Below, piece by piece: positions 3,696-63,580 of a DNA stretch of 64,000 nucleotides (positions are counted from its first letter, which is position 1; every line of letters begins with the position of its first letter). The DNA comes from a phage. Both the position numbers and the translations under genes were made by a program. The stretch lies in the sequence record OZ413489.1; one strand, 5' to 3'. The notes under the pieces were generated by a model, which was given only the letters and a program-made list of their open reading frames with translations, searched no databases and was not told the origin of the DNA.

Positions 3696-4061
3696 ATGGA
3701 ACAAATGAACGATCAAGCGTCGGTTGCGATGAACGAGCAAGAACAACCTCAAGAATTTTTCTTAGGGTTAAGTAAAGATCAAGTGTCTCTTCTGCTAGTG
3801 CTTTCTTCTTTCATGGGAAGACTTCAGGAGCTTACACAACAGCCAGAGGCTGAACAATTATTCCAGGCTCTGCGTGAAGAAGAAAAATATCGTCGTTTGG
3901 ACTATGCCTTAGGTTGGGTAGCTCAACAACGAGATATGCTGATGGCCCTCTCTGGGACCACAAGTTTTGCAATGGGCCTGTTGGCTCAAGTTCAGGACAA
4001 ATTAATTCAAGCAGGGTTTGCACACACGGCAAACACTAACGAAGAACAAGGAGATAAATAA
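3696..4061 (+). CDS. hypothetical protein
   Basis: 121-aa ORF. Confidence 0.6.
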   Translation: MEQMNDQASVAMNEQEQPQEFFLGLSKDQVSLLLVLSSFMGRLQELTQQPEAEQLFQALREEEKYRRLDYALGWVAQQRDMLMALSGTTSFAMGLLAQVQDKLIQAGFAHTANTNEEQGDK

Positions 4062-5287
4062 TGAGCGTTATTCAACAATTCGCTAACCCGATGAATCCGC
4101 GTGAAACTGTTTTACTAGCTCACGGCATGATTAAACGTGTCAGCATCAAGCCTATCAAAGGTGCTGATCCTACAACAGGTATTAAAACCACTGTGTGGCA
4201 AGGTAAGAAAATTGAATCCAGCCACACCATCTCTTTACTGATTTCTGAACTGGATTCCTCTGATAACCTACTTCAAGGTGGTGAAGAAGTTTGGATCAGT
4301 ATGGGCGATAAGCTGCTTAAACCAGGTCATCAAGACTCTGTCTCTGTTAAAATTGATGACAAGTGGGAAACCGTAACGCCAGGATGGATCGTAAATATCC
4401 CTTTGAAGGCAAACGAGCATAACGGTAAGACCTACTACAAAGGCTCACTGGCTAAGATGGTTAAGCTGGGTGCAGGAGAGGCTCCAGCAGCGACTCAGCA
4501 GCAAAAACAGCAACAAGGTGCACAATCACAAGGCCAGAAGCAGAAACCTCAGCAGAATGCCAATCAGGACGTTTTACGCATCTATGGTGATGTGACTCAG
4601 ATTGTTGGCAACGTGGTTACTGTTAATGACCACAAGATTGGCGAAGGTGCTATGGTTGTCACTGATGAGCAGCTTAAAGACCTGGTGGTAGGTGGTCGTG
4701 TTGCAGCCATTGTTGACAAAGACACCGGAAACATTATCAGTGGCTTCAAGGCCTATCCTCCTAAGGCAGAGAACGGCACTCAAGGCTCTGGTGGCAAGCG
4801 TAAATCCTCTTACGACCCTATCGGTGTGGAGACGGGACATAGCATCAATGCGTTGCAGATCATCCTGGATCGCGGGTTTAAGGTGGACGACCCACTAGGC
4901 GTGGCTAAAACACTGCACGTAGTCACCATTGAGCTTAAGAAAGAGTATGCTCAAGCCACCAACCGAACTGAAGATGAAGTAGGTGCCAGTGTCGGCAATG
5001 CGGTGTTGAACGCTTGTCGCCGTATTGACAAGAAAACGAAAGTTGATGATTTTGCAGCGGCAATTACTGCAGAAGCAAAAGATGTCTTGACTAATCTGGC
5101 TGAGCCGTTGTACGATTGGATCAAGAACGGTGCTGGGTCCACTGACCATCAAGAACCTCAAGCTGCCAAACAGGAAGCAGCTCCACAGCAAAACACTGTA
5201 GACGCTCCTCCTGTAAATGACGAGGAAGATGACCCGATGGATCAGAATCCAGCACAGTATGAGTTCGATGACTCGATCCCTTTCTGA
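4061..5287 (+). CDS. SSB-like protein (Gln-rich linker, C-terminal acidic tail ...YEFDDSIPF)
   Basis: C-terminal DDSIPF resembles the bacterial SSB tail (DFDDDIPF); Q-rich low-complexity linker; N-terminal fold not verifiable by eye. Confidence 0.55.
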   Translation: MSVIQQFANPMNPRETVLLAHGMIKRVSIKPIKGADPTTGIKTTVWQGKKIESSHTISLLISELDSSDNLLQGGEEVWISMGDKLLKPGHQDSVSVKIDDKWETVTPGWIVNIPLKANEHNGKTYYKGSLAKMVKLGAGEAPAATQQQKQQQGAQSQGQKQKPQQNANQDVLRIYGDVTQIVGNVVTVNDHKIGEGAMVVTDEQLKDLVVGGRVAAIVDKDTGNIISGFKAYPPKAENGTQGSGGKRKSSYDPIGVETGHSINALQIILDRGFKVDDPLGVAKTLHVVTIELKKEYAQATNRTEDEVGASVGNAVLNACRRIDKKTKVDDFAAAITAEAKDVLTNLAEPLYDWIKNGAGSTDHQEPQAAKQEAAPQQNTVDAPPVNDEEDDPMDQNPAQYEFDDSIPF

Positions 5288-5295
5288 GGTCAGTT

Positions 5296-5874
5296 ATGAA
5301 ATGCAAACGTTGTGGAGAGGACAAGGAGGCCTCCGACTTCTACACCAGTAACAAATCAACGTGCAAAGAGTGTTGCAAGAAGGCCAGCAGGGAGGCTGAC
5401 CAATTTGCTAAAGACTCTTCAGAAAAAGGTGTAATACGTGTGTTGTACAAGGCTCAAAAGTGCAACAGCAAGCAAAGAGGTCACCCTCCTCCGACTTACA
5501 CCAAAAAAGAGTTTAAGGAGTGGCTATACCTTAACGGTTACAAAGAGTTGTATGATCAGTGGGTAGCCAGCGGATACGACAAAAGGAAAAAGCCTTCTTG
5601 TGACAGGATAGATGATTTCAAAGGGTACTCTTTTGATAATATCCGTTTAACGACTTGGGGAGAAAATAAAGACAAGCAGACAGAGGATATTCTGTTACAT
5701 AGAAGCACCAGCGGTAGACGGTGCAAAAATGTAAGGAGGTTGGACATGAATGGTAACGTTCTTAAAGAATGGGTATCTCACAACTCTTGTAGCAGAGAAA
5801 CCGGAATATATATTGGTTACTACATTCATGAAAAAATTCCAGCTCCAGATGGATACTTATACGAATACTTTTAA
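5296..5874 (+). CDS. Cys-rich protein with HNH_3-like domain (DRID in place of DHID)
   Basis: N-terminal CxxC...CxxCC; SCDRIDDFKGYSFDNIRLTTWGENK resembles HNH_3 but catalytic His position is Arg. Confidence 0.45.
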   Translation: MKCKRCGEDKEASDFYTSNKSTCKECCKKASREADQFAKDSSEKGVIRVLYKAQKCNSKQRGHPPPTYTKKEFKEWLYLNGYKELYDQWVASGYDKRKKPSCDRIDDFKGYSFDNIRLTTWGENKDKQTEDILLHRSTSGRRCKNVRRLDMNGNVLKEWVSHNSCSRETGIYIGYYIHEKIPAPDGYLYEYF

Positions 5875-5890
5875 CACATAACTAACATAG

Positions 5891-5917
5891 CCCTGCCCGA
5901 AAGGGTGGGGCATTTTT
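5891..5917 (+). terminator. putative intrinsic terminator
   Basis: ccctgccc-gaaa-gggtgggg hairpin followed by T-run. Confidence 0.45.
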
Positions 5918-5936
5918 GTATAAGGAGATCTGAAAA

Positions 5937-6715: not shown

Positions 6716-7135
6716 ATGATCTATGAAATGCCAAAATTGATCCGTGACGATGCCCAAAACCACACCATTATTATGGGTAAACGCATGAATATCCTTTGCC
6801 GTAACGATTTCTGTGGTGGAGAATACGTTGCAGACTACTTCGGTGAGAATGGTAAACACCCTGTTCAGTTCTTCCTTGACCATGAGGATAACATTATCTG
6901 GGAGTTTGAAACTGAAGATATCCGCAACCTCTTCATCTTCCTCGGTGTCAAGGTTAAGGCCAATTTCGCAGAAGGTGAGTGCGACGATTGTGGATTTTAT
7001 GAGGTGACAGACTTTTATCTCCCGAGTGGCAAGAACCTTTACTATGAGAGTCACTTCGGAAACACCAACATGCCTCAAAGCTGGGAAGAATTTTTCAGTA
7101 TCGTAGAAGAGGAGCTGGCATACCGTGATTATTGA
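6716..7135 (+). CDS. hypothetical protein
   Basis: 139-aa ORF, overlaps start of macro-domain gene (operon). Confidence 0.6.
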   Translation: MIYEMPKLIRDDAQNHTIIMGKRMNILCRNDFCGGEYVADYFGENGKHPVQFFLDHEDNIIWEFETEDIRNLFIFLGVKVKANFAEGECDDCGFYEVTDFYLPSGKNLYYESHFGNTNMPQSWEEFFSIVEEELAYRDY

Positions 7136-7583
7136 TACTGTAAAGGGAGATTTAATCTCCCTTTTTAAGAGCGGTGCTGGTCACCTGATCCACGGTTGTA
7201 ACTGCTTCCACACAATGGGTAAAGGTATAGCAAAACAGATTGCCCGTGAGTTCCCTCAAGCATTGGCAGCCGACAAAGAGACGAGACACGGTTGCCTAAG
7301 TAAACTGGGTGCGTTCTCCCGATGGGAGCACTTATCTCCGATAGGTATTGTCTACGGAATCAATCTGTATACTCAGTTCTACCCAGGGCCTAATGCTGAA
7401 TATTTCTCAATCCTGAAAGGCTTTGAGCTAGTCAATGAGGTATTCAAGGGATCGACTTTACCATTCTACATCCCTAAGATCGGGTGCGGCATAGGCGGTT
7501 TGAAGTGGGAGCACGTAGAGGACGTTATTAACCTCGCCACTTTTGATATAGATATTATCGTGGTGGAGTACAAAGAGTGTTGA
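7125..7583 (+). CDS. macro-domain protein (ADP-ribose binding / O-acetyl-ADP-ribose deacetylase family)
   Basis: GHLIHGCNCFHTMGKGIAKQI and IGCGIGG match macro-domain signatures; GTG start. Confidence 0.7.
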   Translation: MIIDTVKGDLISLFKSGAGHLIHGCNCFHTMGKGIAKQIAREFPQALAADKETRHGCLSKLGAFSRWEHLSPIGIVYGINLYTQFYPGPNAEYFSILKGFELVNEVFKGSTLPFYIPKIGCGIGGLKWEHVEDVINLATFDIDIIVVEYKEC

Positions 7584-62767: not shown

Positions 62768-62842
62768 GCCCTGTTAGCTTAGTGGATAAAGCAGCGGCCT
62801 TCTAAGCCGTTGACACTGGTTCGAGTCCAGTACGGGGTGCCA
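62768..62842 (+). tRNA. tRNA-Arg (anticodon UCU)
   Basis: Cloverleaf folded by hand; loop cttctaa; TTCGAGT T-loop; encoded CCA. Confidence 0.75.
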
Positions 62843-62846
62843 AATT

Positions 62847-62933
62847 GGGGAGTTATCCCGTAGAGGTAGCGGTGTAGACTGTAAATCTATTGTCATTGCG
62901 ACTCGGGTGGTTCGACTCCACCACTCCCCACCA
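62847..62933 (+). tRNA. tRNA-Tyr (anticodon GUA), long variable arm
   Basis: Perfect acceptor ggggagt/actcccc; loop ctgtaaa; encoded CCA. Confidence 0.75.
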
Positions 62934-63047
62934 AATTTATATTTTTAGATGCATAAATAATACAGATAATGGCATTGATATTTATCGTCGTTTATACTAG
63001 TCACTAACTGCTCGAAAATCAGTGTCATTATCAGTATAATTTATAAA

Positions 63048-63138
63048 GGAGGGTAGGGAGCAATGGTGCTCAAGCGGTCTTGAAAACCGTCCCGTTGAGG
63101 ATGACTCGATGATGGTTCGATTCCATTACTCTCCGCCA
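63048..63138 (+). tRNA. tRNA-Ser (anticodon UGA), long variable arm
   Basis: Anticodon arm gcggt-cttgaaa-accgt close to E. coli tRNA-Ser(UGA); encoded CCA. Confidence 0.7.
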
Positions 63139-63236
63139 CATTGTTGACCTTGTAATTAAGCGAAAGCCGGAAGCAGAACCGGATTATCAAATGTTACAGT
63201 CGTCATCGCCGACTAGCAACATGGTCAACATGCTGA

Positions 63237-63335
63237 GCTAGGTAAGCCCTTTGGCAAGGGCGAGGATTTTTAATCCTGAAAATAGACGAGGTAGTCGTTG
63301 AATACATAGGTGGTTCGATTCCATCACCTAGCACC
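63237..63335 (+). tRNA. tRNA-like gene with aberrant anticodon arm
   Basis: Acceptor gctaggt/acctagc, D-arm and T-arm fold; anticodon region is either a 5-nt loop or a 4-bp stem with loop tttttaa; 3' end is CC then T. Confidence 0.35.
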
Positions 63336-63340
63336 TTTTT

Positions 63341-63416
63341 GCTGATGTAGCACAATCGGTAGTGCAATTGATTTGTAATCAATAGGTTGTAGGTTCAAAT
63401 CCTGCCATCAGCACCA
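63341..63416 (+). tRNA. tRNA-Thr (anticodon UGU)
   Basis: Perfect acceptor gctgatg/catcagc; loop tttgtaa; encoded CCA. Confidence 0.8.
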
Positions 63417-63417
63417 A

Positions 63418-63492
63418 GGCCCTGTAGCTGGAAGGTTCAAGCAAGCGACTCATAATCGCCAGACGGTGGTTCAATTCCACCCAGGGCCACCA
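63418..63492 (+). tRNA. tRNA-Met (anticodon CAU; could be Ile-lysidine type)
   Basis: Perfect acceptor ggccctg/cagggcc; loop ctcataa; encoded CCA. Confidence 0.75.
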
Positions 63493-63503
63493 AATAGTAA
63501 ATA

Positions 63504-63580
63504 CTCCGCGTAGCTCAGCTTGGTAGAGCGCCTGATTTGGGATCAGGAGGTCGAGTGTTCGAATCACTTCGTGGAGACCA
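63504..63580 (+). tRNA. tRNA-Pro (anticodon UGG)
   Basis: Anticodon arm cctga-tttggga-tcagg; canonical D-arm; encoded CCA. Confidence 0.75.

Follow-up and report, generated by a model that had tools for sequence, protein, structure and literature searches.

The window analysed here is a 64,000-nucleotide stretch of phage DNA (sequence record OZ413489.1), and the gene under study occupies positions 4061-5287 of its plus strand. This placement, already given in a preliminary description of the DNA, is exact: the gene is an ATG-initiated, complete ORF of 408 aa plus stop, with a C-terminus that reads ...NPAQYEFDDSIPF. The gene, the predicted modules of its product and the flanking features are as follows.

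3696..4061 (+): 121-aa ORF, phrog_7310 (unknown function); its stop overlaps the start codon of the SSB-like gene (ATGA)
4061..5287 (+): SSB-like gene, complete ORF; orthologue of Bas52_0087 (QXV84166.1), bas51_0089 and rV5 gp209; phrog_4477
4061..4477 (+): N-terminal OB-fold domain, aa 1-139, all-beta; predicted ssDNA-binding module; net charge +3
4478..4567 (+): Q-rich disordered linker, aa 140-169; 13 Gln in 30 residues; pLDDT below 50
4568..4771 (+): middle small beta-barrel, about aa 170-237; beta1-beta2-beta3-helix-beta4-beta5, the classic OB topology
4808..5131 (+): four-helix bundle, aa 250-357; the module best conserved across the family
5132..5257 (+): acidic P/Q/A-rich disordered linker, aa 358-399; net charge -9; pLDDT below 50
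5258..5284 (+): C-terminal tip QYEFDDSIPF-COOH, of bacterial SSB-Ct type
5296..5874 (+): EndoVII/HNH-type homing endonuclease gene, phrog_1035 at 2.7e-32, between the SSB-like gene and the terminator
5890..5921 (+): strong intrinsic-terminator-like hairpin and T-tract, closing the transcription unit

No other ORF of 50 aa or more in the 64-kb window has an IPF-type acidic C-terminus. By tblastn against phage genomes, its product is 100% identical to proteins encoded by several Escherichia Vequintavirus (rV5-like) genomes and at least 95% identical in 116 records, nearly all of which call the protein 'hypothetical'; relatives carry it as bas51_0089 (phage WalterGehring) and gp209 (rV5). The DNA of the window belongs to an rV5-like Vequintavirus. 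It matches phrog_4477 ('unknown function') across residues 1-408 (E 4e-173), and a minority of GenBank records (JLBYU08, ESCO9, phAPEC8_ev052, KpS11, Mt1B1_P17, Eryne) label family members SSB. About 16-20 unannotated 'Campylobacter phage' records (MG0656xx, host C. jejuni) contain a gene 99.5% identical to that of the E. coli Vequintaviruses, and their host labels likely reflect mislabelling or contamination of the dataset.

The AF2 model, built from a 27-sequence alignment (mean pLDDT 75), consists of three confident modules, with residues 140-169, 238-249 and about 358-408 disordered. Thus, the long N-terminal part noticed in the preliminary description is long indeed, with about 357 aa before the tail, but it is composed of three modules and disordered linkers rather than of one oversized domain. 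The Q-rich linker noticed there is real, since 13 of the 30 residues at positions 140-169 are Gln. Structure prediction, which that description had proposed as a check for an OB fold, gave one at the N-terminus, and its nearest structural matches are ssDNA-binding OB folds. The residues kept family-wide in this domain include the aromatic or basic H55, W78, K97 and W102, as well as G22, G108 and G122. The location of the conserved aromatics on OB strands argues for an SSB, and so does the SSB-like partition of charge, which is +3 in the OB domain and -12 over the C-terminal 51 aa. In the middle barrel, strands at residues 171-182, 185-190, 194-199, 213-219 and 224-232 surround a short helix at 202-205; it corresponds to the second OB fold described for Bas52_0087 in a recent preprint (bioRxiv 10.64898/2026.04.29.721553). 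The four-helix bundle, for which no structural relatives were found, retains D252, G255, G259, H260, N263, G308, G312 and A318. That this bundle, and not the OB domain, is the most conserved module counts against an SSB function. Considering its conservation, the escape mutations described below and the model put forward in the preprint, the bundle probably serves self-association or partner docking.

When 1.84 billion representatives were searched exhaustively with an HMMER profile, 245 clusters were obtained, and most family members are about 270-300 aa long and devoid of the middle barrel. In the family alignment the barrel has an occupancy of 0.27 (about a quarter) and is missing from homologues P0052-P0056, whereas the helical bundle reaches 0.92 and the tip 0.95, which suggests that the core of the family consists of the OB domain, the four-helix bundle and the acidic tail. 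The modules can also differ in identity to the window protein within one homologue: in P0034 the OB domain reaches 85% and the bundle 52%, and in P0040 the values are 42% for the OB domain and 70% for the middle barrel. Such mosaicism indicates recombination in the disordered linkers.

The tail was said in the preliminary description to be of host type, and the comparison bears this out, as FDDSIPF agrees with the E. coli SSB tip FDDDIPF in 6 of its 7 residues. All 27 homologues, down to 30% identity, have P407 and F408 unchanged, and 119 of 150 family representatives (79%) end in xP[FW], mostly as DDD[ILV]PF. These tails have D/E-rich positions before xP[FW] and an aliphatic residue at -3, with a median net charge of -7 over the last 30 residues (n=150). 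When the family profile was searched against the PDB, the sole matches were E. coli-type SSBs, hit through ...EPPMDFDDDIPF alone, and this exact 12-mer, EPPMDFDDDIPF, is present in phi92-like phage and phAPEC8 relatives. The family-wide retention of the tail, together with the exact E. coli-type 12-mer in relatives, points to an ancestral and selected feature, and at the level of sequence a chance match to the E. coli SSB tip is excluded. The DNA coding for the tail is 83-92% identical to canonical SSB genes over 35-87 nt, a span too short to prove recent exchange.

For the folded part of the protein, no sequence relationship to SSB families was detected, and this counts against reading it as an SSB. 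PF00436 gave no match at E<=10 with the query or at E<=1 with the 27 homologues. The NCBIfam models PRK09010 and TIGR00621 matched P0052 only, in the tail only and far under their cut-offs. Pfam, NCBIfam and PHROGs contained no SSB assignment, the Pfam matches being noise, and PDB searches, run with the sequence alone, with a profile of the whole family and with profiles of each domain, matched the tail only and left the folded part without a match. An hhalign comparison of the N-terminal domain with canonical E. coli-type SSB OB domains gave a probability of 0.1%, using a shallow template of three sequences, one of them approximate, which makes this a weak negative. This absence of sequence homology to SSBs, along with the common use of OB and SH3-like barrels as protein-protein modules, would fit a non-DNA-binding scaffold or regulator of the replisome, in which the barrels are incidental and the tip serves phage-internal contacts only. 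We regard such a role as highly improbable, because it is to ssDNA-binding OB folds in particular that the structure comes closest, and because the charge partition and the tail, which is common to canonical phage SSBs, amount to an SSB design. Generic OB similarity is the sole pointer to another function, in which the protein, with an OB plus helical layout like that of RecO, would anneal single strands or mediate recombination, in recombination-dependent replication or repair. This too seems quite unlikely. Neither a RecO profile match in Pfam nor a RecO-specific helical/zinc-binding domain after the OB fold was found, and the helical domain bears no specific resemblance to that of RecO. Moreover, the tail module is that of bona fide SSBs, and proteins of the mediator or annealase kind bind SSB tails rather than bearing one, as reported for Sak4 (PMC5928155), in review statements for RecO, and in the ETfinder abstract for RecT/Red-beta.

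The genomic neighbourhood is consistent with a role in replication. The genes for the primase/helicase, of gp4 type, and for the family-A DNA polymerase are located about 3 kb upstream of the SSB-like gene and share its strand, and the order primase/helicase, PolA, small ORFs, SSB-like gene is kept in two metagenomic relatives that are 26-30% identical and the most distant ones checked. About 1.7 kb upstream of the SSB-like gene, phAPEC8 and ESCO9 have a polymerase-type gene, which is called 'DNA polymerase' in ESCO9 and 'putative 3'-5' exonuclease' in phAPEC8. In the most distant relative (locus L011, 7837-8001), the ORF immediately upstream matches PF25708 (Phage_T7_Gp5_9), which reinforces the T7-like layout of the module. 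T7 gp5.9 is an inhibitor of RecBCD.

The 121-aa ORF immediately upstream in the window is probably translationally coupled to the SSB-like gene, given the ATGA overlap. It has no Pfam match, and in the JLBYU08 GenBank record it is called 'putative single-stranded DNA-binding protein' on a basis that is not evident. We considered it as a conserved partner and rejected this idea, since it is Vequintavirus-specific and not kept beside distant homologues, and unrelated ORFs occupy its position in phAPEC8 and ESCO9. The downstream EndoVII/HNH gene, 88% identical to rV5 gp208, is missing in about half of the close relatives, and in relatives without it the terminator directly follows the stop codon of the SSB-like gene. 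In WalterGehring, homing endonuclease genes interrupt the genes for DNA polymerase, large terminase and class III ribonucleotide reductase, which are annotated as joined CDSs. Such genes abound in these genomes, so the one beside the SSB-like gene follows a general pattern. Elsewhere in the window, a 152-aa ORF at 7125-7583 (+) matches the Macro domain PF01661 (E 1.8e-6) and phrog_335 'phosphatase' and could encode an ADP-ribose-processing enzyme. Seven tRNA genes lie at 62768-63580 (+), called as Arg-tct, Tyr, Ser, Thr, Met, Pro and one odd call of 99 nt with a four-base anticodon (atcc) at 63237-63335, which may be an interrupted or degenerate tRNA.

Across the roughly 137 kb of the collinear and carefully annotated WalterGehring (Bas51) genome, no SSB or recombinase is annotated. 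A tblastn search with E. coli SSB, T7 gp2.5 and T4 gp32, approximate probes that provide a lead only, matched nothing but the tail of this same ORF, and among the genes listed for rV5 in its genome paper are a ligase, a polymerase and two helicases, but no SSB. That no other SSB came to light in these comparisons also argues against the scaffold role mentioned above. Taken together, we consider it likely that the ORF encodes the replicative SSB of the rV5-like phage, with a non-canonical architecture and a tail that can also engage host SSB partners. On this reading, the N-terminal OB fold would coat ssDNA at a T7-like replisome consisting of the gp4-type primase/helicase and the family-A polymerase, as the fold, the conserved aromatics and the charge partition suggest, and the second, small OB-like barrel may assist in the three-domain forms. 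The conserved four-helix bundle would contribute self-association or cooperativity, or dock a partner. The FDDSIPF-COOH tip, through its match to the host tip, would bring SSB-interacting host proteins such as ExoI/SbcB, Pol III chi, PriA and RecQ to phage ssDNA, would thereby compete with host SSB for these partners, and may also have the phage's own polymerase or helicase as clients, in analogy to T7 gp2.5 and HK620 SSB.

The near-identical orthologue Bas52_0087 (QXV84166.1) of phage RudolfGeigy (MZ501102:75981-77207) was recently described in the preprint mentioned above, dated 30 April 2026 (bioRxiv 10.64898/2026.04.29.721553). It was predicted there to be 'SSB-like' by Phold and AF2, with two OB folds, a disordered C-terminus and an E. 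coli-type FDDDIPF tip, and genetic evidence showed that it is required to trigger the DRT10 (UG17-A) reverse-transcriptase defence. Two DRT10-escape phages carried D252V or Y351C in Bas52_0087, and expression of the wild-type protein strengthened DRT10 restriction during infection but was, by itself, non-toxic to E. coli (bioRxiv 10.64898/2026.04.29.721553). The window protein is identical to Bas52_0087 at 405 of 408 positions (99.3%), the differences being A369T, E401S and S405D, and it has both D252 (nt 4814-4816) and Y351 (nt 5111-5113). Both escape positions fall in the four-helix bundle; D252 is conserved in 81% of the family, and Y351 is not conserved. Because the escape mutants are viable, D252V and Y351C are presumably separation-of-function mutations and not nulls. 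As the three differences are conservative and outside the folded domains, the window allele would likely potentiate DRT10 too. Bas52 has its gene at the same genomic position, and differs in its FDDDIPF tip, compared with FDDSIPF in the window, and in the absence of the downstream homing endonuclease gene. Experiment underlies the DRT10 point alone, in this 99.3%-identical orthologue, and we infer all the mechanistic steps proposed above. Other papers linking BASEL Vequintaviruses and SSB, on retron Eco2, KpAvs2, retron Kva2 and DARNA, were considered and concern other proteins.

The preprint also ties Bas52_0087 to SbcB dosage and proposes a competition with SbcB (bioRxiv 10.64898/2026.04.29.721553), which brings up the possibility that coating of phage ssDNA is not the main job of the protein. 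Multiple host-type tips might instead titrate or redirect ExoI/SbcB, RecQ, PriA and RecO for host takeover or counter-defence, with the folded domains as scaffold or effector. The conserved, host-identical tip and the better conservation of the helical module than of the OB fold would fit such a decoy or hijacker as well. We nevertheless judge it unlikely, in view of the OB fold with conserved aromatics kept across the family, the conserved synteny with replisome genes and the absence of any other SSB among the annotations and tblastn matches considered above. In addition, the lack of toxicity of Bas52_0087 alone in E. coli (bioRxiv 10.64898/2026.04.29.721553) argues against strong titration of essential SSB partners. 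The interpretation given in the preliminary description, a true phage SSB or a protein that uses its tail to hijack host partners, is supported, with a replicative SSB as the likely option. The SSB-like inference for a near-identical protein was already public at the level of prediction, and our finding coincides with that description of Bas52_0087. What we add is the family census, the bundle as the most conserved module, the domain mosaicism, the 3'-end polymorphism linked to the homing endonuclease gene and an extension beyond the tip; the preprint has no separate conserved four-helix bundle, no family census and no post-tip extension (bioRxiv 10.64898/2026.04.29.721553).

The most interesting of these additions is the post-tip extension, for which a full-text search found no mention in the papers it covered. 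In many alleles, IPF is followed by 15 conserved aa, with the motif F-AP[IV]GL[QP]Y-x-[RK]-x2-[IL]-[HY]-x-[ILV], and the extended form of the tail ends ...DDIPFAPVGLQYGKSRIHAL. Carriers include rV5 gp209, the largest homologue cluster (P0001), ESCO9 and KpS11 (locus L015, 397-1614), and a 37-aa query comprising tip and extension matched at least 130 phage records over at least 80% of its length. The pockets that bind canonical SSB tips recognise the carboxylate of the terminal Phe. The extension makes the tip internal and would bury this carboxylate, which counts against an SSB; the masking of the tip in extension-bearing alleles likewise speaks against the decoy role. On the other hand, some canonical phage SSBs carry the tail variant with the 15-aa extension, which counts in favour of an SSB. 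The extension is found on canonical E. coli-like SSBs of the lambdoid phage mEpX2 (locus L013, 484-990) and of Vibrio phage V039C (locus L014, 439-987). These canonical SSBs with the extension (...DFDDDIPF-AP[VI]GL[QP]YGRN..H.I) are encoded beside Rad52/22-family or ERF annealases.

Comparison of the 3' ends of alleles (window 5258-5330; rV5, locus L004, 640-760; loci L005 and L006; locus L003, 4660-4740) distinguished three states. In MaxTheCat, JLBYU08 and Bas52, IPF and stop are followed by the terminator without an endonuclease gene; in the window (5258-5330), IPF and stop are followed by the homing endonuclease gene; and in rV5 (L004, 640-760), IPF continues into the 15-aa extension APVGLQYGKSRIHAL, which runs into the start of this endonuclease gene, here with another N-terminus. 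The endonuclease genes of the window and rV5 are 88% identical, and their differences lie mainly in the first ~30 residues and include a 6-aa indel. The idea that the extension is a leftover of the absence of the endonuclease gene was rejected, because alleles without that gene end at IPF, and because rV5 has the extension together with the endonuclease gene and ESCO9 has the extension without it. We tentatively offer, as a speculative and rather doubtful possibility, that the tail is a swappable cassette, in which the extension is a phage-specific motif that masks IPF-COOH and switches the partner or fate of the SSB, the Vequintavirus alleles being exchanged together with the endonuclease gene. 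A phage protein could be such a partner and a protease degron could bring about such a fate, and one may speculate that the hydrophobic ...H-A-[LI] end of the extension is such a degron or a partner motif.

If the protein is indeed the replicative SSB, the assignment would complete the T7-like replisome of rV5-like and phi92-like phages, which are widely used as model and therapy-candidate E. coli phages and of which rV5 and Bas51 have no annotated SSB. It would also account for the gene as a target of the DRT10 sensor, adding to the defences that monitor phage SSBs. Furthermore, it would mean that a bacterial SSB tip can be grafted on an OB protein without detectable sequence relationship to canonical SSBs, and the family would represent a natural experiment in telling the essential parts of an SSB from the rest.

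Among known systems, HK620 SSB provides a precedent in which the last six residues of a divergent phage SSB recruit a phage partner, Sak4, to SSB-coated ssDNA; that protein, however, a tetramer of distant PF00436 type whose tip reads NDYPPF, is encoded in a recombination module (PMC5928155), and for the window protein a Sak4-like partner is not evident. T7 gp2.5 (DUF2815) likewise comes from a phage whose primase/helicase is of the gp4 type and whose polymerase belongs to family A, and combines an OB fold with an acidic tail ending in Phe; this tail is reported to contact polymerase and helicase. The window protein differs from it in its bacterial IPF-type tip and its domain composition, and in comparisons with DUF2815, sequence gave no match and Foldseek a weak one (E 0.011), to a protein of that family. 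Canonical SSBs (PF00436/TIGR00621) tetramerise via the OB domain and have a family sequence profile that the phage protein does not match, whereas the phage family has an extra four-helix bundle and the window protein a second barrel. Nevertheless, the phage protein shares with canonical SSBs the succession of an OB-fold domain, a Gln/Pro-rich disordered linker and an acidic tip, which reads D-D-D-I-P-F in canonical SSBs and D-D-S-I-P-F in the window.
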